Positions 430-32,000 of a stretch of DNA of 32,000 nucleotides are shown piece by piece. A program made the position numbers and the translations under genes. The stretch is from Candidatus Iainarchaeum sp. (lineage in GTDB: Archaea > Iainarchaeota > Iainarchaeia > Iainarchaeales > CSSED10-239): assembly GCA_937968065.1 (NCBI GenBank), contig CALBUD010000051.1:1-32000 (forward strand), read 5' to 3'. Under the pieces are notes generated by a model that saw only the letters and a program-made list of their open reading frames with translations, did no database searches and was not told where the DNA came from. Within the stretch, counting starts at the first letter, position 1. Every line of letters begins with the position of its first letter.

Positions 430-2604
430 TCATTCTTTAATAGATTTATCATTTTGTATATTATTATATACATTATTAATTACTTTTATTTCTGAAGTAT
501 TTATATGATGTTTTGATTTAAAAATGTTAGTAATTAATGATTTTTTAATTGGTTTAATTACATACTTTTCATCATGTTTTATTAAAATATAAACTAAATC
601 ATCTGTAACAGATAATACTTTATTATATTTATTACTTTTACCATCATTATATCCAATATAATCTCCTTTTTGAATTGGAAAGAATTTTCTACCAGTTGAA
701 ATATTATCATGAGTTTTTAATATTTCAGTTTTTTGTTGTCATTCAGCTTCAGTAAATTCATCTTCAAATAAACTTCTGTGAGTTTCTATTGTTTTAACTT
801 TATCTGTTGAAATAAAATTTTTATCATGTAATTTTTTATTTCTATCTAAAAAGTCATTACCTAAAATTGCATTAGGAAATACTTGTTTAACAACTCTTGC
901 ATGTTGTTTATTCTTTCCAGATTTTTTATCAAAATAATCATAGGTTATAGTTGCTCCTCTTATTGTAGCATCTTTTATTAAATCTGGAGGTAAATATTCA
1001 TCTTTATCAGATACTATTATAATAGATTCACTTTTTGCTAATGCTTCAGCATTTTTTTCTTCAATAAGTGTATTTTTATTTTCAAGTTTTCTATAAGTAA
1101 CTTCAACTCTAGATATATATTCTTTTTTAGCATCAGGCTCATCTACTTGTTTTATTCTATTTAATTCTCTATTTAAACTAATACTTGCTCTTGGAACAGA
1201 AATATATTTTCCATTTTCAACATAATAACCAGACATAGTTACTCCTTTACTATTCATAACCATATTATTATATGGAACTATATATCTAGAAATAATATCT
1301 CCAAATTTATCTTTTATATCAACAAGTATTAAATCTTCTTCAAAATTAATATTATTTCTAAGATGATTATATATATCTTCTGGAGTAGATAATAATTTTG
1401 TTATTTTTTTACCATAATAATAATCTCTTACTGAAGAATCAATTAAAGGTAATATCGAATTAGATTTTTGTAATTTTGCTAATTCAATATCTTCTTTTAC
1501 TTCGTTTATATATTGTTCTGATTCTTGTTTTTGTTTTGCTGTAATTTTAGATTCAAGTTTATTAGAATCCATTAATCTAAATAATATATGAATTCCTTTT
1601 TTAATTGAATTAATATTTTCTTCTTTTGATATAATTGGAGCAAGTAAATCTACTAATTTATTTATAGTAGTTTTAGCAGAGTTTTTATATCTAAATATTT
1701 TATTAAATTCTGGATCAATAAATTCATTATCTTCAGTAAAATGACCAATAAAGAATTTTTCTACATCTAAATCTGTTAAATCAATTCTTAATTTTTCATT
1801 TAATGAAGCATTATATTCTGTAAGTATTTCTAATAAATCATCTTTATTTATTTTTGTAGATATAGATTTAATTAAACCCATAAATAAAGATAAATCATTA
1901 TTGCTATTATGAAAAATTAAATGTCCTTTAACATTTTCATCTTTTACAACAACTGCATCATAAGTATCTGAGTCAAATTCTAAATTAAAAAATACTTGAG
2001 TTTTTCTATCATCTCCTTTATAATAGTTATTTATTAATTTTTTAATTAATTTTACTCCTTCGTGATTAATTGAAAGATCTCTTAAATCTTTTTCTTTGTC
2101 TGATAAATCATTAATTATATCTAAAGGAGAATTTACACCCTTTAAACCATTATAATTTATTTTAGATAAATATTTCTTTTGAATTGGATCATTTAATTTA
2201 TCTAAGAAAGTATTAAAAGTAATTTCAGTATATCTAGTTGATTTAGGTCCTTGATATAAAATTTTATCTGATTTATAAAATACATTTTTTCTTAATGCTT
2301 CAATTAATCCTACGTTTCTACTAGAACCTTCAAGTAATCTATTGAGATTATTAATTAAAGTATCTTTTTTAGATTTTTTAATAATAGATTTTATTACACC
2401 TCTTTGAAGTCCTGTATCAAATTCTAGTATTTTATCTATAAGTTTAGAGTCATCTTTTATTTGTTTACTGACTTCATAAAAAGATTCTATTTCTTTTTCT
2501 AGACTTGCATATAAGTCTTTATCAGAATCATTTATAGGTACAAGGCTAGCGGGCACTTTAACTTGCCCGCCGCCTGGTAACTTAATATAATAATAACATG
2601 CCAT
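430..2604 (-). CDS. Hypothetical virion-module protein (about 724 aa with TGA 739-741 read as Trp); 3' end uncertain
   Basis: ATG 2602-2604 overlaps the TAA of the upstream gene (TAATG). The ORF-track fragment 739..2604 ends at TGA. The same frame then stays free of TAA/TAG for a further 103 codons of non-repetitive sequence (..ILKTHDNISTGRKFFPIQKGDYIGYNDGKSNKYNKVLSV..) in about 20% GC DNA. The next TGA is at 430-432, and the first TAA (328-330) lies inside the synthetase fragment. The N-terminus is MACYYYIKLPGGGQ. Confidence 0.6.
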
Positions 2605-11600: not shown

Positions 11601-11663
11601 TAATTTAGTCTCTAATTTTGATACTACTCTTCCCTGTAAATTAGGGCTACAAATATCGCTCAT
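2604..11663 (-). CDS. Giant protein (3019 aa) with a two-barrel (DPBB) RNA-polymerase-like catalytic motif; candidate virion-packaged RNAP
   Basis: I hand-checked frame 0 from ATG 11661-11663 (upstream TAA 11667-11669) to TAA 2604-2606 and found no TAA/TAG. It contains 22 in-frame TGA codons: 3201, 3528, 4152, 4854, 4971, 5592, 6483, 6603, 6669, 6972, 7083, 7632, 7830, 8253, 8463, 8646, 9210, 9462, 10107, 10416, 10497 and 11577. This joins ORF-track pieces 2604..2984, 3528.., 4152.., 4971.., 7830.., 8253.., 9462.., 10107.. and 10497... The motif ISARIPAQSMQSF-(25 aa)-QGSDFDIDK lies near aa 2029. Confidence 0.8.
5565..5579 (-). other. DFDID (DxDxD) putative metal-binding triad of the RNAP-like protein
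   Basis: The codons gtc/aaa/atc/aat/atc on the plus strand read D-F-D-I-D on the minus strand. This lies 38 residues after an R-I-P (5685-5693). For comparison, bacterial beta-prime has R-A-P ... NADFDGD at a spacing of about 35. Confidence 0.6.
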
Positions 11664-11672
11664 TTTTTATTT

Positions 11673-14600
11673 TTATTGACAGTTTATAAATAAATTATCA
11701 AGTGAATCAGAATCAGAATGATCTATTCCTAAAGTTTTAAAAATATAACTAGTTAAATCATATTGAACAGTATGATGATCTGAATTTTTAGAAGTTAAAT
11801 TATAATAATGGTCTAATAGTAATGAAGATTCTTTCGGAAATTCATTTAATATTTCATATAATGATTTACCATTAAATACTTTATTTCTTCATTTACTGAT
11901 TAATTGATTAAATATTAATTTATCTTCTTCACTTAATTCATCGAAATTTTGATGAATAGTTTTAAGATTATTTAATAATGCTTCTACTGGTTTGCTCGAA
12001 TTTTTATTAACAATTTCAGTTATTTCATCAAAAACTATTTCAGGAGTTAATTCTGTTTTTTCAGTATTTAAACTTCTTAATTTTTGTTCTAAGTCAGAAA
12101 TATAAATATTCATTCCTTCTTCAAAAGATGTACTTTCAGAAACACCTGGTAATGTTGATAGATTAGATATATCAGTTAATCCTTGCAAAGTATATTCTGT
12201 ATTCTTTTTATGTTCTAATATATCTTTAATTAAAGTTGCAACTTTAATTTTTAAGTTTAATCTTTCTTTTGTATCACCTGGTTCATCTTTAACTATAGCT
12301 TCACCACTATATTTTATTGATTTTAATTTAGTAATAAGTTTAGTTATTTCTGGGTCTATTTTGTCTTTTTTGTCTTTTTTCTTAGCAATGATTACATTAT
12401 CGGATAAATCTAAATTCAAATAAGGACCTTCAGGAGTTAATGTAATAAAAGTATTTGATAAATTACTATCAACATCTTTAATTTTAAAACCTTCTCCATC
12501 TTTAGTTATGGGAATATTATAATAAAATTTATCATTAAATTCATTAGATCAGAATTTAAGCATTTGATCAATAATTTTTATTTGACTTTTATAAACTTGA
12601 ATAGTTTCGTCAAAATAATTACCAACTTCAGCTTCATAAAGACCAAGTGTATGATTCATTTGATCATAAAATGAAAATATATTCCAGAATTTAGTTGACC
12701 AATATTTCTTATCGGTATAACCTTGAATTTTTCTTACTAATTTAGTTTTTAAATTTTTTTCAGTAAGAGTTGTTTTTGATTTTTCTGCAATAGTTAATTC
12801 ATTTTCAATTAATAAATATACTTCTCTTAATCTAGAATGTTGTCCTTTTTCTTTATGAGTCATATTCTCAATTAAATCCTTAGAAACAATTTCATTTATT
12901 AATGATAATAATTCATTATTTTTTATATTCTTTCCAGCTAAATCCTTATTAGATTCTTGTATAAGTTGTTTGCCAGTTTTGAAAAATTCTCTAAATAACT
13001 GAGGTTGTTTTACAGCCATTCTAACTAACATATCTAATACTTGATTAGCATTAAATAATGTTTCTGTAACTGGAAATACTTCATCTTGTCGTTTAGATAA
13101 AATTAATTGTCTTGCTGAAATAGGAGTTTTTAATCCTAAAGGATTTCTTATAGTTTCTTGTATTTGTTTTATTGTTTTAGTATTAGACTTCAACAATACA
13201 TATTGAACGTGAGATTTATCCTTTATAAATGTAACTGCTACATAAGGTTTACCTTTATATCCAGAATTAGTTCCTTTTCCATAAAACAATTCTTTTAATT
13301 TTTCTTCAGATATTGGTTCACCAAAGGTTATTTCAGCATATTTTTGTTTAAATTTTTCAAAAGTATTAGGAAATATTTTAATTGCTGGCTTTTTAACATA
13401 TTCCGTTCCATCAAGAAATAATAAACCTTTAAATTTAGATAATTCTTCTAAAGAATATTTTACAGGATTATCATCACTTTTAACAAGTCTAGTAGAAGTT
13501 TTTACATTGATTTTAGTTGGATCAATTTCAACTTCATCGTCAATAGAATTAATAAAATTTTCAAATTTATCTCTAGATTCTTTGTCTTTTTCAAATCAAG
13601 TATTTACTGTATTAAGTAATGGAAATGTTGCTAATTGTACATAATATTCTTTTGAACCATTACTAACTTTTAACATTAAGTTATAATAATCATCTCCATC
13701 TTCTAATGGTGAAGTTTTATCTAACTTTTTATCAAAAGCTGTATTATATGCTTTATAATATGTAGATTTTTTTACTACTAATGTACTTTGTAATTTACTA
13801 GTATCTCCAAATATAGCTTTTAATACTGTATTTAATACTGGAGGTTGAAATTTATTTTTTCCAGTTGATTTAGAAGTTTTCCAAATATCATATTTTAATC
13901 TAACAAATTCTTCAACATAATTATCAAAATCGGCTTCATTAAATCCGTCTGTTGGTTGAATATCATATAAGAAAGATAATCCATAAGAAAAACTACTATT
14001 TGGATTCTTTTCAACAAATACTTTTCCACCTTTCCTGGTAATATTTATATCTAAATCATTATAAAAAGTATGAAGTCTATATTTAAAAGATTCTTTTTCA
14101 AATTCAGGATCAAATTTTTCTTGTGTTAAAGTTTCTCCTGTATATTCAGAATCTCCATCATCTTCATCAGTTAAATCTAATTCTGATTTAGAAAATTTAA
14201 AGAAATCATATTTAATATCAAAATTTGGATTTAATATTTCTTTTAGTTTATCAATTCTTTTCTTTTTATCTTCATCAATTACATTTTTCTGTAATGGAGT
14301 TACAAATACTGTAGAACTTTGTTGTTCATTTTTCAATCGAATTATGCTAGTATCAGGATTTGTAATTTCACCTTCATTTAATATTATAGTAGCTTGTTTA
14401 GACCTTGTACTATAAGTATATAATCTTCTTAAAGAATCTAATACGTGTCTACCTTTTATAAATGAATTAGGTAATATAAAATAATCTACTTCAGATCCTT
14501 GAATATTACCTTCAGTAAATAACTTAATATTAGCTTTAGTAATACCAAAAGCTTCAAACTGTTTTTCTAATTCTGGATCTAATTCATTAATATTATTAGA

Positions 14601-17600
14601 TAATACACCAATTTTAGTTTCAGGTTTATTTTTAATAATATTTCTTAATGTATTTAATACATCATTAGGAATTAAATTAGTACTAGAAAGTAAAGTTCCA
14701 GTTAATACTTCAGGAGATAAATGATATTTTAATAATATACCATTATCTATCATATCCATTATAGCTGGAGTATCTTCAGCAGATGAAAATATATTTATTG
14801 ATCGTTTAACTAATGCAGATAAATAATCATTATTTTCTCTTTGTTGAGAATTAGCTGCCCTAACACTTAGGGATAATTGTGGTGAAAATATTCCAGATAC
14901 TCTATCAATATTATAAGATACATTTTCAACTTTTTCATTAGTAATACCTAATTGAATATAATCACCAGCTCCTATAATTTTTAATTTATTTGTTCGTTTA
15001 GAATATTCATTAAGTAATTCTAATTCTAAAGCATCAAAGTGAGATATTTCATCTATAAATAAAACATCAGGCAAATTAGTTTTAGTTAAATCAAAATTAA
15101 TTTTATTTCAATCTTTAATAACTATTTTTTCAGCTTTATTTTCAGAATTAGGTATAGCTATTTCTACTATTTCTACTATTTCAGAATTATTAAAATCTTC
15201 TGCATAAATTTGTTCAAGAATTTTATCAATTCCTAATTCTTTAAATAATGCAGATTTAATAAATTTTTCTTTAGTAAATAAAGTATGATCAATACTACTT
15301 AATACAGAATCATATAAATCATTAGTTTTATCTAAACTTGGTGCTGAAAATCAGATATTTAAATTAGGATTATTATTTTGTAAAAGTAAAGTTATTATTT
15401 TAAATAATACTGCTGTTTTACCAGTTCCTGCATCACCTAAAATATAAGTTATTCTGTCTGTTAAATGTGCAAGTTCACTTTGTGTATCAATTATTATTTC
15501 TGAAAATAAATCTGGTTCAATAATTGAAGCATATATTACTTTAGTAGAAAATTCTTGAGTAAAAAATGGAGATTTATCAAATGAATCTTTTTCTAATATA
15601 GAAACTAATCTATTATTAAAATCATATGAATCAACAGATAAACTAGTAACTAAATACAATAAAAAATCATTATTACTAATAGATTTAATATTTTTATCAA
15701 TTCTATTACTTCCATCTTTATCATATAAATCATATAATATATTTTTAAATTTAAATATTCTTGCTAATTCTTTTACTACTTTAATTCTATCTTCTTTAGA
15801 ATAAGTATTATAATGTTCAAAGAAAAGATGTTCAATTTCTAATAATTTTTTCTCATCATCTAAATTAGAATCTATTAATTCTGATAAATCAGGAAATGAA
15901 GGAACATCTGGTTTTTCTTTTATAACAACCTTTCAAGCATATAATAATTGCTCATTTGTTTTTTTCCTTATTTCTTCTTCTTCTAAGAAAATTTGTCCTG
16001 AATTATTTCTAGATAAATATACTAGAAATTCTAATTTATTTTGAATTCTTTGTAATTCTAAAATTACTAAATTAGCTATATCAGAAGATATAGTTTTTAA
16101 TTTTGTAATATCAGATTTAGTATCATGTTTTTCAGCAAATCGTTTTCTTGCTTCAATAAATCCTATAGGATCTTCACTAGAAACAGTAGTCATACTAGTA
16201 CCTAATACAATAGACCTAAGCATCTTTAAAGCATCAATTGCTTGTAACATATCTTTTTCTTGAAATCCGGCTTTAATATAATTAGTTGGATCAGAAGCAT
16301 TAAAAAGAGTTAAGTTTTCATCCCTTAAAATATCAACTATTGTTTTTTGCCTTTTTTCTTTTTCATCGTCTAAAGATAATAAAAAATTATTTAAAAATTC
16401 ATAAATAGTATTAGGAATAAATTTTTCTTTATTATCTAATACTTCTTTTAATTCTTTTAACTTGTTAATTGTATTTTTATTTTGTTTTACTTTTTTATTT
16501 ATTTCTGAAAGTTCATTTTCTAAAGCATACATAGTAGCATCAAAATTTTCAGAAGTATTTAAAATATCCATGATATAACTTGGAAAAGTATCCCAAAACC
16601 CCATATCGTTTTTATAATCTTCTATAGAATCTTTAAAATCTTGATTAATAGTAGAAATATTAAAAATTAAATCTAATAAATTTTCATTTGAAATTGTAAT
16701 TTCTTTAAAAAAGTCTCCTTTAAAATTAGATATTATTTTTAAATAAATTTCTTCTAACTTATTAAATAACTCTTTATCTAAGTTACCTGAATCTTTAATT
16801 TCTTTTAATATTGCATCAAGAGTATAGTTGATTGGTTCAAATACATTAAAATCCTCAGCCTCTGTTGTTATTTCTGATTCTCTTTTTACATATTCAGAAT
16901 AATTATTTTTATATATATCAAAAGTAGAATGTATTTTATCTACAATAGCTTCAATTTGAGATAATTTTGAATCAGAATCAGACATTATTAATTCAATTAA
17001 TGAATTATCTCCGGGATTAGTTAAAGCAAAAAATTCAATATATTGTTTTAATGCTTCTTTAAGTTCATCATTTGTTAAATCAGATACATCTTTTTTAAGA
17101 GTCTTAGCAAACTTATCAAGAGTATTTTTATGTGTTTCTAATTTTCAAGTAAGCATGTCTGAAGAGAAACCATTAACAAGTTCAGGAGTTAATCCTAATC
17201 TTACCATTTCATTATTAAGGAAAAAAGCTATTTGTCTTTCTTTTTCATCTAACTTTTTATCTCCTTGAATATAATGTAATGCTACAATAAGTTTTTTACT
17301 TTCTAAATCCTTAATTTGTTGATCAATCTCATTAGAATTTTCTTCTGTTTTTTCTGCTAACAATTCTTCTTGTTTTCTTTCAAGACCATCATTATATGAT
17401 TTAATTGTATCATTAAACATAAGTGCTATTGAATTGAAATCTAAATTATCAGTAGGTAATTGAGAAAGAGTACTTTTTAAAACTCTTTGTATTATTTCTC
17501 TTCTTGTAGCTTTTTCTTCACCTTCAGTTAATTCTTGATCTAAATAAGTATCTGATAAAGGATTTCCTGTAAAGTCAACAATAAGTCCTTTTTCTTTAAA

Positions 17601-20483
17601 CTTATCATAAGCGTCTATTGATAAAGAATCTCAAGGATTTGATCTTATACCAGTATTGGTTTCAACCATCTTCTGAATTTTTAATCAATTAGCAACTGAT
17701 TCTTTTGCAGCATTTGCATCTTTTACATTAAACATTTTAAAGTTTGTTGCTATATCTAGAAGATTTAAAAATGTTTTTCTTCGTTGTTCAGAGTATCCAG
17801 ACTCAGAATAATCAAAAAGTGGTTTATTTAATTTCTTTTCTAAGTCCTTATAAACATTTCAAGCAACATCCAAATTTTGTCTAAAATTTACAATATCTTT
17901 AGAACTTTCTCATTCTTTTTTAACTAATTCTTTAGTAATTCCTAATCCAGATTCTGGAAGAGTATGATATTCTTTATTATAACGTGCTTCTGTAAAACTT
18001 GCTAAGTCAATTGCTAAAAATGCTTTACTTATATCTTTTTGTAAATATAAGTTTATTTTATCAAAATAATCTTGGGCTCTTTTACCTTCTTTTATATCAG
18101 TTACTTCACTTCTATGTCATTCTGCTTTTTCTTGAAGTTGTTTAATCGCTTCTTTATTACCTTCTTTGTCTTCTGATAATTTTTGAATTTCAGCATTTAA
18201 TTCAGTAAGAGCGGCAGCATGTTTTCTAAAGTCTTCAACAATTATTCCTTCTATCCCAAGTTTATCTTTTTCACTAATTGTGCCAGCTAAATCTCTAATT
18301 ATTAAATAATCAGCCATAGCCTTATCAATTAATTCTTCATCACTTAGAATTAACCCTTCTTTATTCATTAAACCATCTATATCTTTTATCATAGCTATAG
18401 TAATATCTGCTACAACATCTGCATGAGAATAACCTTCTTTATCTGTTGCTGTAGTTTTACCTTCAACTACAAAAGGTGCAATATATTTATTACCTAAATT
18501 TTTTCTTAATTTATTTACTTCATTTATTAATAAATCTGTTTGTCCATTTCCAATCATTTCATATACTGATTGTCTTGCATCAAACGATATTTCTTGATTT
18601 TTTAACCAAGGTTTAGATCTATTAAGTTCAAATAAAGCACCACCTAATACACCACCCATTAATGAAGCTGCATATCTTTCTAAACCAGATAAAGAAAATA
18701 CATTCTGAAATCCTCCAAAAGTTCCTCTCTTTTTAGTAAGTCCTAAATGAGACATTACATCTACAACACCTTTAGTGGCATCAATTACTAGTTCTTCTGA
18801 TACTTCTTCAATACCTTCAATTATAGCATTTTTTCAAAGAGCTTCTCCAATAACAGATGTATTAGTCATCATATCAGAAATATTACTCTTCCATCCTTTA
18901 ACTGCTTGAGCAAGTTTAGCTTTACCTTGTGCTGTTCCAGATGCTTTAATTCCTGCTTCAATTGGTTCCATATATCCTTTTAAACCTTTTCTCATTAAAG
19001 CTTTATTAGTTTCAACAGTATATCCTGTAGTTTCATCTAAAAATCAATCTCCCATTCTATTGTTCATCATAAGAGCATAAGTTCCTGTAGCTGCAAGTAA
19101 ACCTGCAAAACCAGCAGTTCTTCTATCATATCCTCCTTCTAATGCTTCTCCATATATACTTGCTGTTGAAGTTAAAGCCATGTATCCTAAAGAAAAGGAT
19201 TTAGCCATAGCAGATTGTTTTCTTTGAATTTCTTGTAAACCTGGAACTTTTGAAGCTAATTGAGAATGTATAAGTTTTATTTCATCTTCATCTATTTGAC
19301 CAGTACCTCATTTTTTAAAAGTTGTTTCATTTACTTTACTTATTAATCTTTGCTGATCAGCAGATAATTTAACTTTAGAAGGATGGTAAAATAACTTAGA
19401 TAATGAAGCCATTGCTCTTTGTTCATATATTTGACTAAAAATATCTGCAACCATTGTAGATATTTGTTCATAGTTAAATAAAGAACCTTGTGCTTCATCA
19501 CTAGTAGAAGTTGCTGCAAACTTAGCCATATAATTTTCTGCAGCTGTTGCTACATGATTTAATTTACTAGTTTCTTCTCCTAATATAATACCTTCTAAAG
19601 ATTTATATAAAGTAGGAAGTGCAGAAGAAAGCCCAATTGCAGCTTTTACTGCTCCATAAGGTAATGCTACACCTGGAATAAATAATGGTGCTATTTCTGC
19701 AGCAATTTTTAAAGTAGTTTTAATAGCATTAGCTTCTTTATTATCTGCATCAAATATATCAAAACTATTTGCTAAAGTACCATCAGTAGTTAAAGCATCC
19801 ATAGGATTAACTACTTGTTTACCATAAACTTCTCTTTTACCTAAAGTTTCTACAAATAATTCTCCATCATTATTTACTTTCCAATCTCCTTTAGAATGTT
19901 TAACCATTCTATTACTAACAGGATCTAAATGTGTTCCATCTTCATCTCACTGTGCATAAACTAAAGTTTGACCAAATAATTTACCAAGAACACTTCTGTC
20001 ATTTACAGATTCTTCTAAAAATTCTCCTTTTTCAGTATCAAATATTTTTCCTCTTTGAGCAAGTTCTCTTAAAGAAAAATTACTTTCGTCCACACTAAAC
20101 ACATCTGTTTTTCCATATGTTTGTTTAAATGGATTAAAATCTTTACCATATTCTACACTAACATTAAAAGTTTTAGCTTCTTTTGGACGTGTAATATCAA
20201 AAGGACTATATCAAACTTGATCGAGAGAATTAAGATAGTCAACTTCAGTTAATCTATTATAGTGTCCTTCAGCAACATCATAAAATTTGTCAAAAGATAA
20301 ATTATCAAAATTTCCATCTTCTGTTGTAAACATTTTTTTAATAAAAGGAAATTCTTTATATTCATCTTTAGTATATAAAGATGTATTTTCAGGATTTATC
20401 TCTGACGACATTAAGTCATATGTTGTTGCCATAGGATTATTAATTGTAGCAACAAATATATCATTGGGTTTCTTTAATTCCAT
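11673..20483 (-). CDS. Giant protein (2936 aa): N-terminal Gly/Ala-rich hydrophobic (ejection/membrane-type) region plus an internal Pif1/RecD-like SF1B helicase core
   Basis: I hand-checked frame 0 from ATG 20481-20483 (upstream TAA 20496-20498) to TAA 11673-11675 and found no TAA/TAG. It contains 17 in-frame TGA codons: 11889, 12549, 13596, 15108, 15351, 15933, 17145, 17631, 17685, 17859, 17910, 18117, 18834, 19044, 19308, 19947 and 20211. This joins nine ORF-track pieces. Confidence 0.8.
14379..15437 (-). other. SF1B (Pif1/RecD-like) helicase/ATPase core inside the 2936-aa protein
   Basis: - Motif I: ILGDAGTGKT (15414..15437).
- Motif II: VLFIDEISHF (about 15045..15065).
- Motif III: IIGAGDYIQLG (14946..14972).
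- Motif V-like: FTEGNIQGSEVDYFIL (about 14480..14525).
- Motif VI-like: LYTYSTRSKQATIIL (14379..14420).
Order and spacing are as in SF1 helicases. One TGA (15351) and a second (15108) fall between motifs I and II. Confidence 0.7.
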
Positions 20484-20484
20484 G

Positions 20485-22332
20485 TTATTCCATAATTAAT
20501 TGTTGAGCATTGCCAGACTGTACAGGAACCTGACTAGAATGTCAAATATTTCTTTGAACATCTGCAATAGTAGATTTTTTATCAATTGGACCTTGATTAA
20601 CTAAAGCATCTACAACTGCTGTAGCTGTATCCCTATAAGGAATTGTTATAATAGCTTTATAATAATCTTCTATATTAAATCTAGCATTTGGTGTAACGTC
20701 TTTAGCATTTTTACCTATTCCTACTGTTCATACTTGTTCTAAAATAGGAAGTATTGATCGTTTTTCATCAGAAGATAATTTTTTAACTCAAGGATTATTT
20801 TTAGTTAAACCCGTAGCATCATTTGTATATCCATACATTACTAAAAAAGGTTTGATATAAGCATTGTTTCTTATTACTTTTTCTCCACCTACTTGATCTA
20901 TTTTTAGATTAAAATCAGCATTTCTAAAATGTTTTTCTGCTTCAAGTGTAGTCCAAGTATCTTTCTTTTTTTCATATTCAGCATATACTTCTTTAAATTC
21001 TTGAAAAGCTTCATAATCGGGTTTACCATCTTCACCTACTGGCATATATATTTTTGCAGCTGAACTAGTCGGGTCATAAACAACATTGTTTAAATTATTT
21101 AATTCAACTTTCTTATCTCCAAAGTGAACTTTAGAGCCATCAGCAATCATATTATAATCATATTGAGATAATATTTGACCAACTGTACTAAATCCAATTG
21201 ATTCATCTTTCTTGGTCATAAGTGGTCCAACTGCTCCAATAGCACCTCTAAATAATACATTTAATTTAGGATCATTAAATGCAAATGTAGATAAAGGATC
21301 AGCTAATTTATCTTTGTGAAACATTTGAAATGCTGTTAAAGATTCTAATCCTTTTTCTGTTTGAGAACCTTTTATTGATGTCTCTGTTTCGGGACTTATG
21401 ATAGATGTAGTTTGTGGTTCTGTATATGAAATTAACATATCATAAATAAATGCTTTTGGGTTACTTTGTCCGTTCATTGCTGCAGAAGCTTCGAGTTTTA
21501 ATTGACTATTTCTACCTAACGAAGTTCATATATAACTTAATGCTTTATCTATATTCTGTCTTTTTCCTTTAAATTCTGATACAATTTTTGTATAATCTCC
21601 TGGAGTATTTAATGCTTCTTGTAGTGTTTTGATTGCATTCATATCTTCATTTGTTGGTTCTTTACCTCCAAATGATTTTAAATATTGTGCTAATTGGTCT
21701 TTAGAATAATATCTTTCGGTTTTCTCTGAAAAATCACTCATAATACCCATCATTTGTCTGATGTGATCAGAAATTTTTTCTAAACCTATTGCTTGATCCG
21801 CAACAGAAAATACAGATTTATTAAAACTTAATTGCGGATCATATTGTCTAGCCATCATTAATTCAGATACAGTCAAAGGATTATACTTACTTTGATCTTT
21901 CTTATATGTGTCTAAACTAATAGTTTTAATATTATTATCTTTATCTCTGACATAAAGTTCTCTACTTGGACCAATAGCTACTTCACTTAATCCTCCAGAT
22001 TCTTTAGCAACTTTTAAAGAGTTTTCTCATATTTCTTTATTATTTCGTAATTCATTGATTTTACCGATTAATTGATATGTTTTAGATCTTGATCCTTGAT
22101 CCATAAAATTAAAAGGGTCTGATTCTAATGCACCTAATTGTTCAACAAGTGCATTAACCTCATTTATCAATCCTCCTTTAGTTACTAATTCTTTATACAT
22201 AGTATCATCTAATAATCCCGCTTTCTTTTCTTCTGCTTGAGAAGATCCTGTTGGAGCAGCAGGAGCTGATTGAACAATGGGGGTGAACGTAGCAAATCCA
22301 CCCCCTTGTAATTTCCTAATATTATATTTCAT
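20485..22332 (-). CDS. Hypothetical virion protein (615 aa)
   Basis: ATG 22330-22332 overlaps the upstream TAA (TAATG), and it is the first start after the in-frame TAA at 22378. Frame 1 is open down to TAA 20485-20487, 1 nt before the next ATG. There are 5 in-frame TGA codons (20542, 20728, 20788, 21526, 22027), which join ORF-track pieces 20788.., 21526.. and 22027... The N-terminus is MKYNIRKLQGGGF. Confidence 0.75.
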
Positions 22333-25300
22333 TATTTGAATATCTTTAATAAAGATTTCTGCATTAATTCATTGTTTTTAAGAATAGTTTTATATATTCT
22401 TTCAACATCTTTTTGAGTTCTTGATAATTCACTTTTATATCTAGCTAACTCTTTTTTCTCAGATAAACTTCCACCTTTTGCTCTATAAGAAACTGAACCT
22501 GGCATTTGCATTGCTAATCCTAAATTTCTAAGATTATATTGGTAATTTTCCATATATTCTCTTATTCTATTAAGTCTGGCATCAAATTCTTTTGCAGCTT
22601 GAGATTCTTCAAAAGTAGTTACTGTTTCATCAGAATCATCTTGAGATCATGCTTGTTTAGCTTTTTCTCTAGCTTCTTGAATTTGTTGCGCCTCTTTCAT
22701 TTGTGCTCTATATTCAGGATCAGTCATAGCTGCATAATAATCAGAATATTTTTTATTCCTCTCTTTAATTTGCTTATTTTGAGCATAACCTTGGATAAGA
22801 TTTTGGAAAGCTGCATTATTTGCAAGCATTTTATTAGCATCAACTAAATGAAGTGCTCTTTCACCTTCAGCAGCAGAAGCCATATTTTTAGCCATTGTTT
22901 CTAAATTAACTAACTGAGTTTGTCTATTAGATTGATCTTGTCTTTCTAAAGTTTGTTGTATTTGTTGCTGATCAGCAATAACTCCTTTTTCTCTTAATCC
23001 TGCTCCTTGTCCTTCTGCTGTAAGTCTTGCTGCAAAACCTTTGTCTATATCAGCAATACTTCCTGCCATTCTTTTACCAACTGAAGATAATCTTGCAGCT
23101 TGTGTATCATAAAATGGAGCTAAAGTACTTGATGCTCTAAAATATTGTGGAGCAATTGTAGGTAATTTAAGTATTCCAGCTAATGCTGCTCTTTTTTGAG
23201 ATTCAGCTATTGCTTTATTTGCTTGAATAGTTTCACCATATCCAACTACATTTAATAAATCTGTTTCATTTATATTAGGTAATTTAGACTTAATATCTCC
23301 CAAATTTATTCTTCTATTTTTAATAATGTCGGATCCAGATTGAGGTTCAAACATTTTTCTTTCTGCAACATTCATGTCATCTTTAGTTACTTGATATACA
23401 TCTACTTTTCTTCTTGGAATAATTCCACTATTTTGCATTTTTAATACTCCACCTTCTTTATAACCTCTAAATCAACTTTGATTTAAATAACTGCCAACAT
23501 CGCCACGAAGAATTGCTCTTAATCTTTCATATTCATATTTAGGTAATTTAGATTCTTCTAAAGTCATTATTTTAGACTTACCTGCAGGATTAATTTTAAA
23601 TTGATCATCTATATTAAGATTCTTAATTTTATCAACCTGAGATTTATCAACCAAAGCTTTTTCTAATTCTGATTTAAACTTATTAAATTCAGTTTCATTG
23701 TGAGTTTTAATTGCTTCTTTATCTTTACCAAGTTTTCTTATAGATGATTTTTTAAAATTAGGAGCGTTTATTTCTTTAGTTAATGCAAATTTTTCTTTAC
23801 CTATTTCTAATTGAACTTTATCATTAGTTCCAGCTTTTCTTAAAGTATCAGCTTTTTTAATTGCGCCTTTATTTTTTAAGAAACCTTTTACAGCACCGGC
23901 TCCATAAAATACATTTTTTAAATCTTGCATTTGAACACCTTCTGTACCTGCTTCTGCTGCACCTTTAACTACATTAGCACCAGAATATAATACATTAGCA
24001 CCACCTAATACACCTAAACCTTGAGCAGCACCTTTACTAATTTTCTCCCATCCTGGTAATACACCTATAAGTTTTCTTAATCCTGTAGTTTCATCTAATA
24101 AAATTCTCTTAGCTAAACTAGGATCTTTTGGTACTACTGGTGGTGGTTGCGGTTTAAGAACAAACGGTTTAAATTCTTTAACTTCTTTTGTAATTTTTGA
24201 AGGAGTAAAACCTCTAGTTATATTTTGATCAAAAATAGTTTTTGCAGAATCACTTGTTCCTTTCTTAATTATAGTAGTTGATGTAGTTTTTGGATTAACT
24301 ATACCAGCAGCTTTTAATAAATCTAATTCTTTATCAGTAATATTAGCTGCTTTATAAGTTGATACTGTTCCTTGTTTTGACATTAATTTAGATACACCAC
24401 TAGCAAAATTTTTAGCATCTTCTGTTTTATCAACAACTTTTACTAAACTCTGTAATTTACCAGCTTTACTTGCGGCTTGAGTACCTATTTTTAATGCTCT
24501 TAATCCACCAAGTCCTATTGCACTTAAACCTATAAAACCTAAGTTCATTAAGTGAGTTCCTAAAGTAACATCATCGTCTCCTCTAATATCTCTAGCAATA
24601 TCAGCAACTGTAGTTACTGCTGCACCAGCCATACCAACACCGGGCAATAAAGAAGCAGCTGCACCACCAACTGATAATCAATCTAAGAAATCAGCATCAG
24701 CCATACTACCTCTAATGTCTCTAGTTTTAGATTCTTTAGGTTCTTCTTTTGGTTTATTAGCATACTTATTTAAGTATTCTTGTGCAGTTAATGATGTTCC
24801 AGATTGTGCTTTCAATATACCACCTTTTTTTCTAAGAATTTGCATATTTGGAGATCTAAGTGATTCTCCAACTTTACCAATAACAGATTGATCTTTAGGT
24901 GCTGGTACTTCAGATACTTGTAAATAATTATTTATAATTTTTCTTATAATATTTTTAGTTTCATGTCCAGCAAATCTATCTTGACTTTGTAATTTATCAA
25001 GTAATTCAATATATTTATTACTAGCTTGACTTCTAACTAAATAACTTGGGTCATTTTGTGAAATATATTTTAATTCAGAAATAGTTTTACCAATACTTTC
25101 AGTTTCAGAAGTTATATTACTTCTAAGAATTGCATCTGCTGTATTTAATGTAGCTGTTGTATTTTCAGGTTGAGTTCCTTGTATTGGTTTAAATGGATCA
25201 TTTTCAGAAAGAGTTAAATAATCTAAATATGCCGGTCTTAAACCTTCACCTTCTGCAAATCTTTGAATATCTACATTAACAGGTTCACCATTATCTTTTC

Positions 25301-26591
25301 TAGTATAAACACCATTTTGATTGTATTGTAATTCAATTTCTTTTTTTGTTTGAGGATCTTGTAAAATTAAAGTTTTTGTATAATTAAATCCTTTTTCTCC
25401 TCTTTCAGGAACTCCAAATATATTTCAACCTTCAAAACCAGTTACTTTACCTTGAATTGGTCTAAACCTTTCTCCTTCAAATTGAAATTTGAATTTAGAT
25501 GGATCATAACCTTCAACTCCTTCTTGAAATAATGTAGGAATACCTTCTATATGACTAAAATAAGTACCATAACCAGGTGCATCAGGATCAATATATGTAG
25601 ATTCAAATAATCCTGTTTTACCAATTACTATTTGTCTACCTGATTCATCTTCTAAAACTAATCCTTTTTTAGATATATCTTCTTGTAATCAAGGAGAATC
25701 AATGTTTTTTAATCTATTATCTGCAGAAATTTTAGTAAACCCTTTTTCAACAGCACCAGCAATTACTGAATCAGCATATCCTTGCTGTCTAAGATTCTTA
25801 ATAAATCCTTCAAGTTCATTTTGTTTAGCTTGTTGACTTTCTTGTTTTATCTGTTCTTCAGATTTAGGAAGTAATAATCCTCTAGGATTTCATCCTAATT
25901 TCTGACTTTCAGAAACAAAAGTATCTCAATCATTATTTTCTATTGCACTTAAAATAATTTCTTTATTTTCAACAGGTAAATATTCTCATCCTTCTTTTGG
26001 AGTAGTACCATATTCAGAAACATATTTTCTAGCAATATTCATTACTCTTTTCTTTTTAGCTGACTCATCTTCACCAAAAGTTGCTAAATCTTGTGCTCAT
26101 AAATTCTCTGCTCCTTCTTGTCCACCATATATTGATTTTTGTATATATAATCCAAGATCTCCAATTTTCTTTTTACCTAAATATCCTGCAGCTTTCTTTT
26201 GAGAATCACTACCTTGAGTAGATTTTTTATTTTGTAAATATTCATTAGTTCAATTAGCTATTAATGTATTGACGTTAGATTTAGGTGTAACTTGTCCAAA
26301 TATATTTGTTTTTATTCCTTCTTCACTCCCTGTTCAATCAATACCTTGTAATTCAATTGGAAGTTTACTTGCATCTATTTTATATTTTTGTGTAATTGGA
26401 TCATATTGATATGCTTGTTCAAGTGATCCAGATTTAATTAGTTTTCCTCAATTGGAAGCAGCTTCTCTTGCTGGTTGTTCTGCTTTTGCTGTAAGAATAC
26501 CTTCTCCAAATTTCTTACTTATGAAGTCTTCATAATCTTCATATAAATTTGGCGAAGTACCTCCAGATTGATATTTTTTAACAACTGACAT
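22332..26591 (-). CDS. Large virion/ejection-type protein (1419 aa) with a Gly/Ala-rich hydrophobic segment and a Gln/Ala-rich coiled-coil-like C-terminal part
   Basis: I hand-checked frame 0 from ATG 26589-26591 (upstream TAA 26619-26621) to TAA 22332-22334. There are 12 in-frame TGA codons: 22647, 23472, 24678, 25425, 25689, 25890, 25926, 25986, 26097, 26250, 26334 and 26448. This joins ORF-track pieces 22332.., 22647.. and 23472.. with an otherwise uncalled 2 kb. The N-terminus is MSVVKKYQSGGTS. Confidence 0.75.
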
Positions 26592-26620
26592 ATTATATGC
26601 TGTATTAATTGTTTTTAATT

Positions 26621-26655
26621 AAAAAAATAAGGGAAGACAGATTCTGTCTGCTCCC
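26621..26655 (-). terminator. Putative intrinsic terminator or attenuator after the 88-aa gene
   Basis: The minus strand reads GGGA-GC-AGACAG-AAT-CTGTCT-TCCC, followed by TTATTTTTTT. That is a 6-bp plus 4-bp stem with a 2-nt bulge and a 3-nt loop. It starts about 10 nt after TAA 26666-26668 and sits in the only sizeable non-coding gap (26592..26665). Confidence 0.5.
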
Positions 26656-26665
26656 CTTATTCAAA

Positions 26666-26932
26666 TTACTTCCTGCTTACTTTTACAAGTTTTCCGCCTT
26701 TTCTGGCATATACAGGTGCTTCTTGAGGAGCTGCTTCCATTCCTGCGCCACCACCTTCTAACATAGCCATAATAGCTTGAGCAAGCATTGCAGCGGCTTC
26801 TGGGCCTAACTGTTGTACGATCTGTTGTGCCATCTGCATTAATTGTTCTTCTGGTCCTGGACCACCAGCACCTGCGCCCGGTGCTGCTTCTGGAGCCATT
26901 GCTCCACCTTCTTGAAATCTTTTTACTTTCAT
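26666..26932 (-). CDS. Small Ala/Gly/Pro/Met/Gln-rich protein (88 aa) with a basic C-terminus; likely an abundant virion or internal protein
   Basis: The ORF runs from ATG 26930-26932 to TAA 26666-26668. It forms a GC island: 93/180 GC over 26701..26880 by hand count. The sequence is MKVKRFQEGGAMAPEAAPGAGAGGPGPEE...VYARKGGKLVKVSRK. It is followed by a hairpin and T-run. Confidence 0.7.
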   Translation of the reverse strand: MKVKRFQEGGAMAPEAAPGAGAGGPGPEEQLMQMAQQIVQQLGPEAAAMLAQAIMAMLEGGGAGMEAAPQEAPVYARKGGKLVKVSRK

Positions 26933-26940
26933 TTTTAAAA

Positions 26941-27516
26941 CTAGTTTTTTGATACATATTCAGGCTCTGAATCATTTTGAGCCTTTAAAAATTTAAACAC
27001 TCTCTTCCCTAATGCTTTATAGTCACTGTCTTTTTGAGTTACAGCAGCTTTCTTAGCAAACTTAATTAAAGTCTTAGTATTAGGTCTTGAAAAAATTCTT
27101 TCTCCGCCTTCCAATTCCATTTGCGGAGTTCCATCGTCATTTAACACTAACATTTTATCTTGTTTTACTTTTGTATTTGGAGAAAATTCTAATTCATCAC
27201 CTGGTTTTACTCCTGAATTAACATTTAATTCTAAAACAAAAGCTACGTCTTGTTCTGTAAACATTTCTTCTGAATTAGGTTCTCCTTGATAAACTGCTTT
27301 AATATTGAGATCAGTATCTATAAAAATAATATCTAAAGGAATTAAAGTATCTTTCATTCACATAGAAACTTCTTCTGTATCTGTAAAAGAAAATAACATA
27401 CCTTCATCTTGTGGTAAATTTTCTACTCCTTGAAGTCCCTTTTCTCTTTGTTCATCAGTTTCAGCAATACTTACTTTATATGTATTATCACCGATTCTTA
27501 TTTTTATTTTATCCAT
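26941..27516 (-). CDS. DUF192 (COG1430)-family protein with a C-terminal extension of about 75 aa (191 aa)
   Basis: The ORF runs from ATG 27514-27516 to TAG 26941-26943. The translation is MDKIKIRIGDNTYKVSIAETDEQREKGLQGVENLPQDEGMLFSFTDTEEVSM-W-MKDTLIPLDIIFID...VLELN..GVKPGDELEF. This follows the DUF192 pattern (GL.g...l..d.GMLF.f......fWMkNT.iPLDiiFid). The conserved Trp is encoded by TGA 27358-27360. Confidence 0.8.
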
Positions 27517-27656
27517 TTTTTATAATCTATGAAAGAAAGTTTACCTTGATTTTTAAGTACATTTTTTAAATGAATTGCTTCATTTCAATCATTTGTTTCT
27601 AAATGAGTTATATATTTTTTCTTCTCTATATTATAAGTAATAACTCAATATATCAT
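27504..27656 (-). CDS. Small hypothetical protein (50 aa)
   Basis: ATG 27654-27656 overlaps the upstream TAA (TAATG). The stop is TAA 27504-27506, giving a 13-nt overlap with the DUF192 start. There are two in-frame TGA codons (27645, 27585). The sequence is MIYWVITYNIEKKKYITHLETNDWNEAIHLKNVLKNQGKLSFIDYKKWIK. Confidence 0.4.
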
Positions 27657-27922
27657 TATTTAATAATATTTAAAATTAAATCATTCATAGAAAATAATTT
27701 TCCTCCATCTTTATGTTTTCACTTCCTTGCATTATCTGCAAAAGTAGCTCTTTTTCTTATTGCTGGATTAGGACTATTTTTTCCTTTAGAAATACATTCT
27801 TGTGTAACTTTTCCACCACAATATTCTGTAAATTTTCCTCTATTTTCTGGTTTAATATATATCTTTGATTTCCCACCTTTTTTATAAGATGATATTAATT
27901 CGGGTATAAAATTTAAATTCAT
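27656..27922 (-). CDS. Small basic protein (88 aa)
   Basis: ATG 27920-27922 lies 1 nt after the upstream TAA. ORF-track piece 27719..27922 ends at TGA, and the frame continues to TAA 27656-27658. The sequence is MNLNFIPELISSYKKGGKSKIYIKPENRGKFTEYCGGKVTQECISKGKNSPNPAIRKRATFADNARK-W-KHKDGGKLFSMNDLILNIIK. Confidence 0.65.
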
Positions 27923-27923
27923 A

Positions 27924-29171: not shown

Positions 29172-29174
29172 AGT

Positions 29175-32000
29175 TTATGCGTAACTTATTGTAAATAATG
29201 TTCTAATTGCGTTTATAATAGCGTATTTTTGACCATTATATTTTACTCTTATTTTAATATACTTGTCTCTCAATTTCATTTCGGAATTATTAGTATATAC
29301 TAAATTTGACCCCGATAAATATCCATATTTGAATGTTATAGGTTGAATTTGAATATCCCATGAATCCTCTACATATTGCATGTTTCCTCTTAATCTTCCA
29401 ACTTGTTTAATATCCAATCCTTTTTGATATATAGTTACTAATTTTTCTTTAGTTTTGTTATGTTCTCTAATTGTTAAATCTCTTACAACATTTGGAACAT
29501 CTGGTCAATTCGGATTAAATACATTAATATCTCTACACCAAATAAAAGGTAATTTGTTTACAGATGGATTTTGTAACAAGTAATTTCTATAATTATTTGA
29601 TAATTGAGCTTTTATTGTTTGAGCATTTCCTATACTTTCAGGAGGACTTAGTGAATAAATAGTATCTTTTAAATAATTTCACTCAAATCCTTCACCTACA
29701 ATTTCATATTCAAGTGAATCTGGTTCAGCTCAATTAGAAATAATTTTCAAATTATCAAATATCTTTTGAATACCTTGTACTTCCGTAACAACAAATTCAT
29801 ATTCAAAAGGATGTTGTTCATCATACCAAAAGGTTGGTTTAATAATTCCAGTTTCTTCTAGTGTTCCAGCGAATCCGTGCTTATATAGTATTGAACCTCT
29901 ATTCGTATGAATTTTTTCATTTGCAAATGTATAAAAAATATTATTAATATTTTCCGAAAATTCAGGAAATCATGTATATTGTGTTACTCATTTATTTTGA
30001 AGTTCATTTCAACATAAATGTCACTTTTTATTTCCATATATAAATACAAATAATACATCATGCTTAAATGCGTTGAAGTGACTCTTTATTACATATTGAC
30101 TTACTGTTTTATCTCTATCTGCAATTCCTAAATTTATATTATCATTTAAAAACTTCTGAATTTTAAGATCTGATATCAATTCAAAAGTATCACCATTAGT
30201 TCTTCATATTTTTTTAGCAACAGTATCTAAACCATATACAAATCTTGGAGTTTTTATAATACTTTCTGATCATAAAGAACCAAAAGTATCAGATAAAACT
30301 TTAGGATTTTTAGGTAATACTGTATCAGTATTTATATAAACATTTTCTCCAGAAGCATTAGTCATCATCGCTCTCTCATTTACAGGAATCATTAATACTC
30401 CATGTTCCATTACAGCAATTAATGAACCAAATCATTCTTCTAATTTTACTAATGATCCATATTCCGAAGAATAATCTTGATAATTCTGAGATTTAAATAC
30501 TCTATTTTCATTAACAAATGATGCCTCTTGTAAAATATCTGAATAATATATTCTTGTACTAAAATTAGTTTTTATAAAAGGAACATCTGGAATTTCAAAA
30601 TAAAATTTATTTCCAAGTGAATAACTTATTCCTGAATTAATAACATTTGATTCAGGTAATTTATTCTCAGGTTTAGCGGATTGTAAAGGATAAAAACTTC
30701 TTTTCATTTTATGCAATGCTTCTTCTGCAGGTCTAGAGAAATCTACATCTCTCATTGCAAGATTAACATTAGAACATATTTTAAAAGTTATTCAGTGTCC
30801 AATAGGTACTGCATTTACATCAGCTCTATTTATTTTAGTTGCACCAAAAGTACCATTAGCTTCAGAAAATTTCTTAAAGTCTTTTGAATCAGGCATTGTA
30901 AGTTTAGCAAGTGATATATCTTTACCATCTACCTCTGCTGTTTTTCAAGTAAATAAATCTAATACTTTTTTATATGATGCTGTTTCTGTTCCTCCTGTAA
31001 TAATTCCATCTGTTGAATCTACAATTACATTACCTCCAGAACCTCCTTGCATTATTTTTGTTGTTTCGACTCTATAATTTTTATACCAAGTATAAGGATC
31101 AACAATTTGATTATTAGTTGGTAATTCAGGATCAGTAAAATTTCACATTACTCTATGAGTATATGTATTTATATAACAGTCACCTCTATAAATTAGTTTA
31201 GTTTTATCATTTGATAAATCATTTCAAGTCATTCTATCACTTACAGGTAAGAATGGAGAAGAATCGTTATATCTAACTCTAAAATAATCTTTTCACCTAT
31301 TTGGGAAATCATAATTTTTTTGAAAAATATTATAATACTTACCAAATTCTAAATTATTATAAGTACTTGCTATATAAGTATTAAATTCACCCCTTATTTT
31401 AGTTACTCCTTCTGATCAGGTTGCTTCACTAATATTTACATCAGTTCTTAAATCTTCTAAATCCCCATTTACTGGATCTACATGTTTTCAAGAAATTTCA
31501 GGAGTGCCTGCTCTTGAACAGAACTTACTATCATTGTTATAAATCAATTCTATTCCTGGTTCAATTAAAGATAAATTAGAAAAGAAAGTACTATCGTCAA
31601 GTTCATCTCTTTTTATAAGATTTCCTAAAGTAAATATCTTTCTATCATTCATGTTATCTGTAAATGATCCAACTAGTGGATTATGATTAAATAACTTAAG
31701 AGTAAATTCAGATGAATTAAAGAAATTATTAAATACATACGGTCTGATAGAAGCTTCTGGACAGATTAAAGCATTATTATTTATATCTTCTACTTTGAAA
31801 AAACTTCTACCTAATTTAGGTTTTGAATTTGAATCTTTAGTTAAAAAAGATTCAGTAAAATATTCAGATGAAGTAGTTATTCCTTCTGTATAAGTTCCTT
31901 TAATTAAGGGAGTAAATGCTTTTTGTGAAGTAGCGATTGCTAAACCTTGAGTTAATAATGTAGGTATTCTTTTTTGTCTTACTATAAAAAATCCTTTCGT
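29175..32000 (-). CDS. Large Trp-rich structural protein, 5'-partial (at least 941 aa in the window); possibly a tail or tail-associated component
   Basis: I hand-checked frame 0 as open from the window edge (32000) to TAA 29175-29177. There are 17 in-frame TGA codons: 29505, 29679, 29730, 29970, 29988, 30009, 30021, 30204, 30270, 30432, 30792, 30945, 31143, 31224, 31293, 31416 and 31488. Only 4 Trp codons are TGG. Its position upstream of the cargo/RNAP block suggests a structural role. I recognised no specific family. Confidence 0.7.

Follow-up and report, generated by a model that had tools for sequence, protein, structure and literature searches.

How does a virion RNA polymerase of the crAss type, which works in vitro only on single-stranded DNA (ssDNA), gain access to a genome that is double-stranded inside the cell? 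CrAss-like phages are the dominant human gut viruses, and the RNA polymerase that they inject is structurally unusual. The question is touched by a locus in the 32,000-nucleotide stretch of DNA analysed here (the window; positions 1 to 32,000 of contig CALBUD010000051.1, assembly GCA_937968065.1, deposited as Candidatus Iainarchaeum sp.), in which the gene for a giant protein with a superfamily 1B (SF1B) helicase domain stands directly before the gene for a virion-RNA-polymerase-like giant. The helicase-bearing giant is real and well defined, the assignment of its helicase is secure at the SF1B level, and its carriage in the virion can reasonably be inferred. The reading that we favour, with a probability of roughly 0.45, is that the giant is packed in the capsid and ejected and that its helicase opens the entering DNA for the co-injected polymerase. 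A conserved helicase of intact appearance, placed beside the polymerase across the whole clade, is a concrete candidate for the missing duplex-opening activity.

The gene runs from 20483 to 11673 on the minus strand and yields 2,936 residues when TGA is read as a sense codon; the initial annotation had placed the interval correctly and left the strand unstated. Frame 0 of the minus strand over 11673..20483 comprises 2,937 codons, among which TGA occurs 17 times, TAG nowhere and TAA once, at the end; this bears out the single continuous 2936-codon frame claimed there, whereas the standard code splits the same interval into nine open reading frames (ORFs). Among 5.8 billion proteins searched, 230 relatives of the giant were recovered, and the homologue figures given here rest on the 120 that were listed. 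TGA is read as Trp in this gene (code 4), as judged from the alignment, since four of the TGA positions fall in Trp columns of the homologues: W is found at residues 179, 480, 550 and 858 in 96, 119, 60 and 59 of the 120, respectively. Decoding as Gly (code 25) was ruled out by the same columns, and true stops within fragmented genes were ruled out by the continuity and conservation of the frame. In-frame TGA occurs in all eight genes of the window, from 1 to 22 times each (17 in the giant, 22 in the polymerase gene, 17 in the muzzle gene), and is commoner than TGG in seven of them; no suppressor tRNA was found within the window. Every long reading frame of the window lies on the minus strand, at a G+C content of 22–31%. 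Inside the giant gene, the G+C fraction is 0.293 over 17784..20483 (the part encoding the N-terminal module) against 0.231 over 11673..17783, a shift that is probably a constraint of amino-acid composition and not a mosaic junction.

Residues 1640-2040 are almost certainly an SF1B helicase of RecD/Dda/Upf1-like character with a tandem RecA-like fold. The SF1 motifs Q, I, Ia, II, III, IV, V and VI are present in this order and are 96–100% conserved over 114 aligned helicase regions, the conserved residues being Q1643, G1683xxG1686xG1688-K1689-T, P1715, D1811-E1812, G1840-D1841xxQ1844xG, R1875, Q1995-G1996xE1998 and T2023xxxR2027. Judged from this motif conservation, the motor is catalytically intact, and its sequence indicates that the domain is under strong purifying selection; the mean column identity of the core is 33%. 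The initial annotation had quoted several of these motifs, together with three Gly/Ala-rich segments, and all of the quoted strings were found at the residues given. It had also proposed a Pfam search and a structure prediction. In the Pfam scan, AAA_19 exceeded its gathering cut-off, and AAA_30 and UvrD_C_2 fell below theirs. The AlphaFold2 model of residues 1605-2072 showed a confident tandem RecA-like fold (predicted local distance difference test [pLDDT] 90.5, predicted template modelling score 0.89). Pfam, profile, model, Foldseek and conservation show that the match is no product of chance.

The placement within SF1 was provided by sequence and structure matches, which are closer to SF1B than to the SF1A enzymes (UvrD/Rep/PcrA). 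Searched against PDB sequences, the helicase family profile matched Upf1 over the whole core (E 2e-11), followed by RecD (2.5e-7), nsp13, IGHMBP2 and Sen1; Pif1 was represented by one chain only, with a weak and partial match (9.5e-4). The best Foldseek matches of the model in the PDB were RecD, DSH9, Dda, nsp13, RecD2, SLFN11 and Upf1 (E 1e-10 to 1e-7, about 1e-10 for RecD, Dda, nsp13 and RecD2), and PcrA and UvrD ranked 46–47 with E of about 1e-6. There were 237 matches at E ≤ 1e-3. Helicases or ATPases resembling them make up nearly all of the best 50 listed, and the Foldseek matches include two proteins in complex with polymerases, Sen1 on RNA polymerase II and HelD on the bacterial enzyme. 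Dda was also the best structural match among viral models (BFVD). By analogy with the family, the polarity of the motor would be 5' to 3'.

The narrower label "Pif1/RecD-type" of the initial annotation proved too specific, while its SF1B part stood. The Pif1 signature PFGG(I/V)Q was not found between motifs II and III, where residues 1812-1840 read EISHFDALELELLNEYSKRTNKLKIIGAG, and a Pif1 orthologue was rejected on this ground. A RecD or RecD2 orthologue was rejected as well: the NCBIfam models TIGR01447 and TIGR01448, whose cut-offs are 310 and 500 bits, scored only 24.3 and 18.6, and their matches were confined to the motif I-Ia region. T4 Dda, RecD (of RecBCD) and RecD2 share with the domain the tandem RecA fold and the ordered motifs and are its top structural matches, but at TM-scores of only 0.36–0.45 and identities of 13–15%; moreover, these proteins have about 440–750 aa and serve replication and recombination, either on their own or as subunits of a complex. 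Pfam searches of 16 diverse full-length members of the family found no other enzymatic domain, only P-loop/helicase families and a chance-level DUF1439.

The helicase is fused to the same N-terminal module throughout the family. The 120 listed relatives have 1,655–3,587 aa, and the blocks corresponding to residues 1-900 and 1350-2050 are common to nearly all of them. When 1.84 billion cluster representatives were searched exhaustively with a profile at E ≤ 1e-30, the family came to no fewer than 302 clusters at 50% identity, with proteins of about 2,400–3,600 aa. Among the best 150 cluster representatives, 109 were giants, being 2,300 aa or longer and having their helicase near residues 1300-2170, and 28 were matches shorter than 1,000 aa; because almost all of the latter are cut at a protein end, they look like fragments of recoded or truncated genes, to judge by their sequences. 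No convincing case of a stand-alone version of this helicase was found among them. The survey of fused versus separate forms that the initial annotation had suggested therefore came out on the side of fusion: the N-terminal module and the helicase share one ORF in all 120 listed homologues and in 45 of 45 IMG/VR loci, in standard-code and recoded genomes alike (standard code in 19, TGA = Trp in 23, TAG = sense in 3).

The surroundings of the gene are conserved to a similar extent. In the window, the order is muzzle – 415 aa – DUF192 – 1,419 aa – 615 aa – giant – DFDxD polymerase, with 1 nt between the giant and the upstream gene and 9 nt between the giant and the polymerase gene. The immediate vicinity of the two giants and the 9-nt gap (the next ATG is at 11663), both noted in the initial annotation, were correct, and the block has the form of a tightly packed recoded operon in which no terminator-like sites were found. 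The same order, with proteins of about 415, 1,400 and 615 aa, recurs in 166-kb and 176-kb contigs, in GenBank MT835470 and in the 45 IMG/VR loci; in these 48 related loci, a homologue of the 615-aa protein lies directly upstream of the giant in 45. The block is kept across genomes using codes 11, 4 and 15, and the contigs of the clade measure 117–178 kb. The phages of this family match the Zeta-group crAss-like phages in gene order, in the size of their contigs and in their mixture of genetic codes; mixed codes and contigs of such sizes were described for that group (PMC7886860).

According to the favoured reading, the giant would be a late product, as would the muzzle protein, the virion RNA polymerase and the putative ejection proteins; it would be packaged into the capsid and would pass into the cell with the genome upon ejection. 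Its motor would then load on the incoming DNA and separate the strands at the expense of ATP (in the 5' to 3' direction, if the family analogy holds), so that a single-stranded template would be given to the co-injected two-barrel RNA polymerase and early transcription could begin. We infer packaging and service to the polymerase from synteny, late-type recoding and the published ssDNA-only activity of such a polymerase in vitro. The giant is encoded among the late genes, past the muzzle gene and beside the DFDxD polymerase. Mass spectrometry of virions of phage crAss001 detected gp45, gp46 and gp47, whose genes come after that of the muzzle protein, as well as gp49 and gp50, the polymerase proteins (PMC10172136); gp65-67 of phi14:2 are likewise virion proteins. 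Packaging of the giant, by analogy with these proteins, is probable. In crAss-like phages it is mostly the late genes that are recoded (PMC7886860); with 17 TGA codons, the giant could therefore act early only if it were delivered ready-made, like the polymerase.

The need for such an activity is suggested by the properties of the polymerase. The phi14:2 enzyme gp66 is inactive on double-stranded M13 DNA and weak on native phage DNA, while it is efficient on single-stranded or denatured DNA, and its eukaryotic relative QDE-1 needs RPA and the separate helicase QDE-3 (bioRxiv 10.1101/2020.03.07.982082). The N4 virion polymerase has a similar preference for single-stranded or denatured templates: in vitro it depends on DNA that has been denatured, and in vivo its promoters are believed to be opened by the gyrase of the host (PMC13434306). 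On these analogies, melting of the template for the polymerase by the helicase may be put forward tentatively, at odds somewhat below even. Poxvirus cores, in eukaryotic viruses, package helicases with their RNA polymerase. The origin of the single-stranded template for crAss-type virion polymerases can now be approached in vitro, without a cultured phage.

Several points weigh against this reading. The giant showed no similarity to gp45, gp46, gp47, gp49 or gp50 of crAss001 by BLASTP, family hidden Markov models (HMMs) or hhalign, and virion proteomics for phages of this clade was not found in the literature. It does not carry the N-terminal K-K-x-Q-x-G-G of its 615-, 1,419- and 758-aa neighbours; if that motif is a packaging signal, then the giant would need another route. 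The tail channel is narrower than 50 Å, so that a helicase protein of about 340 kDa could pass it only in an unfolded state. No fused helicase was detectable in other crAss-like groups with the same type of polymerase, and because these groups manage without one, a helicase is not generally required. Finally, Upf1, the closest match in sequence, is an RNA/DNA helicase, and the substrate of the motor may be DNA or RNA.

The closest counterpart in position is crAss001 gp47, a 262-kDa "RNA polymerase-associated" virion cargo protein identified in virions by mass spectrometry, whose giant gene follows those of the muzzle protein gp44 and the cargo proteins gp45 and gp46. Like the giant, gp47 has a Gly-rich hydrophobic segment near its N-terminus (Kyte-Doolittle 1.57) and is predicted to be alpha-helical; unlike the giant, it has no helicase domain, and no similarity between the two was detected by sequence, HMM or hhalign, a comparison for which the listed relatives of gp47, all at least 90% identical, gave no deep family profile. 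The giant as a homologue of gp47, gp49 or gp50 was accordingly rejected (BLASTP, three family HMMs and N-terminal hhalign, all negative).

Within the family, conservation is highest in the N-terminal module of the giant, with a mean column identity of 55% over residues 1-700. Its model, of medium confidence (pLDDT 66.7), begins with an alpha/beta domain (residues 1-235) that is followed by long helices, and the invariant residues include W480, GYDRRTAG (451-458) and the acidic run E556-D575. No relatives of the module were found in the PDB, PHROG or Pfam, and PHROGs held no family for the module or for the whole giant. The three Gly/Ala segments that the initial annotation had called ejection-protein-like, located at about residues 260-293, 455-473 and 605-620, are present, but near-transmembrane hydrophobicity is reached only over residues 256-289, in the region of the conserved motif IAP..IPG....YGG..AA..L, and the other two are amphipathic; for comparison, the Kyte-Doolittle value is 1.73 for the predicted transmembrane helix of crAss001 gp45 and 1.57 for the N-terminal segment of gp47. 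Because no PDB, PHROG or Pfam relative was found, the likeness is one of composition only. Beyond the helicase, conservation is moderate as far as about residue 2700, after which the C-terminal region becomes variable.

Such a module could anchor the protein at the trans-envelope channel or the inner membrane, with the SF1B motor reeling in a genome of about 120–190 kb. RNA polymerases pull in the genomes of T7 and N4. A motor for DNA import would have a precedent in T7, where entry is powered by a downstream polymerase motor (PMC13434306), and would be in keeping with the large genomes of the clade (contigs of 117–178 kb), with the conserved hydrophobic segment and GGxxGGxxF in the N-terminal module, and with the higher conservation of this module compared with the helicase (55% vs 33% mean column identity), as would suit a structural docking role. 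However, SF1B enzymes move on single strands and not on duplex DNA, and no transmembrane helix is predicted at the usual threshold, so we regard import of the genome by the giant as quite unlikely. A combination of this idea with the favoured reading, in which a packed helicase tethered through its N-terminal module to the ejection channel or the polymerase would feed the template and perhaps also pull DNA in, as a self-sufficient kit for early transcription, is rather unlikely as well, if less so. If true, it would make the giant the first virion-delivered bacteriophage helicase, as far as could be found in the literature, and would account for the start of transcription in vivo by two-barrel virion polymerases, which are inactive on duplex DNA.

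The gene could also encode a late enzyme that is never packaged and merely shares the structural operon, acting in replication, recombination or DNA processing (concatemers, preparation for packaging). The closest characterised relatives, RecD, RecD2 and Dda, do serve recombination and replication, and no homology to proven cargo proteins was found. This role is improbable, however, in view of the fixed place of the gene between the muzzle/ejection-like genes and the virion polymerase in 45–48 loci and under three genetic codes, of the fusion of the helicase to a large non-enzymatic module with membrane-like motifs, and of the DnaB and SNF2 helicases already present in the replication block of the Zeta group (PMC7886860).

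Injected giants with motors are known from P1 DarB and the polyvalent proteins, which are multi-domain, encoded late, packed in the head and injected, and bring a helicase-type motor to the entering genome (PMC5512222). DarB, a packaged giant with a helicase module, protects the injected DNA, and polyvalent proteins are common in phages and encoded near late genes (PMC5512222), a context like that of the giant, which could then be a translocase that rides on the incoming DNA and displaces or outruns restriction enzymes and other DNA-targeting defences. The motors of polyvalent proteins, however, belong to superfamily 2 (SF2)/SNF2 or, rarely, are UvrD-like, and they are accompanied by methylases and other effectors in an anti-restriction role, whereas the giant has an SF1B motor as its one recognisable enzymatic domain, and neither a methylase, a peptidase, an ADP-ribosyltransferase nor any other effector domain was recognised in the 16 diverse members. 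Furthermore, counter-defence genes are usually patchy in distribution, and the giant is strongly conserved, universal in the clade and fixed beside the polymerase; an anti-defence function is thus very doubtful. If the giant is injected, then giant phage proteins carry SF1B motors too, besides the SF2 motors of DarB-like proteins. An Upf1/Sen1-like 5'-3' motor that strips nascent RNA off the template strand or frees stalled polymerase, and so recycles the few injected molecules, has the least to recommend it: the best sequence-profile matches (Upf1/Nam7, IGHMBP2, Sen1), the polymerase-bound Sen1 and HelD among the structural matches and the presumed tendency of ssDNA transcription to leave RNA:DNA hybrids speak for it, but the structural ranking is led by the DNA helicases RecD and Dda and no RNA-binding accessory domain was recognised in the 16 members.

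The theme of injected giant multi-domain proteins is known, and its SF1B variant is named in databases and unstudied. Phage Lera, a Zeta crAss-like phage (PV725988), has an ORF191 listed as "RecD-like protein" (8,346 nt, 2,781 aa, TGA-containing) in Table S1 of PMC12386605, the text of which does not discuss it; its neighbours are alike (muzzle – hypothetical – DUF192 – … – RecD-like – large hypothetical – RNA polymerase), and its orthology to the giant rests on size and synteny. Two further orthologues were recognised via BFVD in UniProt, A0A8S5RTY8 ("RecD-like protein [Siphoviridae sp. gcode 4]") and A0A8S5TKT5 ("Helicase [Podoviridae sp. ctz6O13]"): the first piece of each matched the N-terminal model (E 6e-31 and 3e-28, respectively), and the second piece matched the helicase model (E 1e-27, TM-score 0.76, and E 2e-19, TM-score 0.65). 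So, the helicase has already been picked up by automatic annotation, and those names are automatic only. No paper was found that treats the function, location, virion association or transcription role of these proteins, and literature searches for Crassvirales with "RecD-like", or for "cargo proteins" with "helicase", returned no papers. The initial annotation knew of no described virion-cargo protein with an SF1B helicase; none was indeed found described in a phage, but the implied lack of precedent was overstated, considering the named orthologues and the DarB-type proteins. An annotation better than "RecD-like protein" can now be given to hundreds of metagenomic genes.

Large proteins of other crAss-like genomes that are annotated as helicases gave distant structural matches, for example at BFVD ranks 13 and 25 (TM-score about 0.37–0.39), where piece 1 of "ATP dependent DNA helicase [CrAss-like virus sp. 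ctcfK29]" and piece 4 of the very long "DNA helicase [uncultured phage cr50_1]" were found; giant proteins with a helicase module may therefore be more widely spread in Crassvirales. A tblastn search of 50,697 phage records gave two unannotated matches, MT835470 and MT835492, and the contig index held no record of the exact giant protein. The scan of GTDB genomes gave 15 loci, 14 of them in contigs of metagenome-assembled genomes (MAGs) from unrelated taxa. The taxa include Bacteroides, Ignavibacteriaceae, Lachnospiraceae, Gastranaerophilales, Erysipelotrichaceae, Tenericutes and Anaeroplasmataceae, and the contigs are of whole-phage size, up to 163 kb. These matches are probably mis-binned phage contigs that contaminate public MAGs, and for this reason no host was called.

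Table 1 Features of the giant protein and of the neighbouring genes, in window coordinates
Feature	Position	Strand	Evidence or remark
Giant-protein gene	11673..20483	minus	TAA stop at 11673-11675; 17 in-frame TGA = Trp
N-terminal module, residues 1-900	17784..20483	minus	most conserved part of family
Hydrophobic Gly/Ala/Pro segment TTLKIAAEIAPLFIPGVALPYGAVKAAIGLSSAL, residues 256-289	19617..19718	minus	Kyte-Doolittle maximum 1.54
GGxxGGxxF, glycine-zipper-like, residues 610-618	18630..18656	minus	G610, G611, G614, G615, F618 invariant
Acidic Lys/Glu-rich linker, residues 901-1349, poorly conserved	16437..17783	minus	
Conserved pre-helicase region, residues 1350-1639	15567..16436	minus	1605-1639 helical in model
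SF1B helicase core, residues 1640-2040, two RecA-like domains	14364..15566	minus	Pfam, profile, model, Foldseek
Motif I / Walker A GDAGTGKT, residues 1683-1690	15414..15437	minus	G1686, G1688, K1689 100% conserved
Motif II / Walker B VLFIDEISHF, residues 1807-1816	15036..15065	minus	D1811, E1812 99% conserved
Motif III GAGDYIQLG, residues 1838-1846	14946..14972	minus	G1840, D1841, Q1844 99% conserved
Motif V NIQGSEVDYFIL, residues 1993-2004	14472..14507	minus	Q1995, G1996, E1998 97-99% conserved
Motif VI YTYSTRSKQATIIL, residues 2022-2035	14379..14420	minus	T2023, R2027 99% conserved
C-terminal region, residues 2041-2936	11676..14363	minus	no recognisable domain
Virion-RNA-polymerase-like giant, 3,019 aa	2604..11663	minus	GSDFDIDKSY at residue 2029; 22 in-frame TGA
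615-aa gene	20485..22332	minus	KLQGGG motif at N-terminus; directly upstream of giant
1,419-aa gene	22332..26591	minus	Gly/Ala hydrophobic segments, residues 641-702; N-terminal KKYQSGG; candidate ejection or cargo protein
DUF192 protein gene (PF02643, E 2e-24)	26941..27516	minus	Pfam
crAss muzzle-protein gene, 3' part, cut by window end	29175..32000	minus	PF25731 E 1.4e-17

The other genes of the block are listed in Table 1. The muzzle fragment matched crAss001 gp44 (BLASTP E 1e-7) and was the only window protein with a PHROG match, none being found for the other six complete proteins besides the giant. The DUF192 gene lies within the muzzle-to-polymerase block in 35 of the 48 related loci. 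An HExxH motif occurs in no protein of the window, and a zincin protease like that in phi14:2 gp65 is thus not evident. No other protein of the block has a Gly/Ala hydrophobic run as strong as residues 641-702 of the 1,419-aa protein (24486..24671), which read VGGAAASLLPGVGMAGAAV … LGFIGLSAIGLGGL (Kyte-Doolittle 1.5). On this account, the 1,419-aa protein is the leading candidate for an ejection protein that forms a channel in the manner of crAss001 gp45, to which it showed no BLASTP similarity.

Similar N-termini were seen in several products of the minus strand: MKYNIRKLQGGGF in the 615-aa protein (22332..22288), MSVVKKYQSGG in the 1,419-aa protein (26591..26550), MACYYYIKLPGGG in the 758-aa protein (2604..2560) and MKVKRFQEGG in a small Ala/Gly/Pro-rich ORF (26666..26992). 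The pattern K-(K/F/L)-Q-x-G-G is retained at the N-termini of the homologues of the 615-aa protein (19 distinct) and of the 1,419-aa protein (10 distinct) in the related loci, and it may be a capsid-targeting or processing signal.

The link of the polymerase to crAss001 gp50 was provided by the like motif GSDFDVDKLY and a second colinear high-scoring segment pair (BLASTP E 4e-5); phmmer with the motif region against PDB sequences gave no match. The polymerase region, a single ORF of 3,019 aa in the window, is split in relatives into two or more large ORFs: into 1,684 + 1,660 aa at 19930-29933 of one related locus (L003), and into 2,281 + 991 + … aa in MT835470 (28886-45658). In phage Lera, the polymerase is interrupted by a homing-endonuclease gene.

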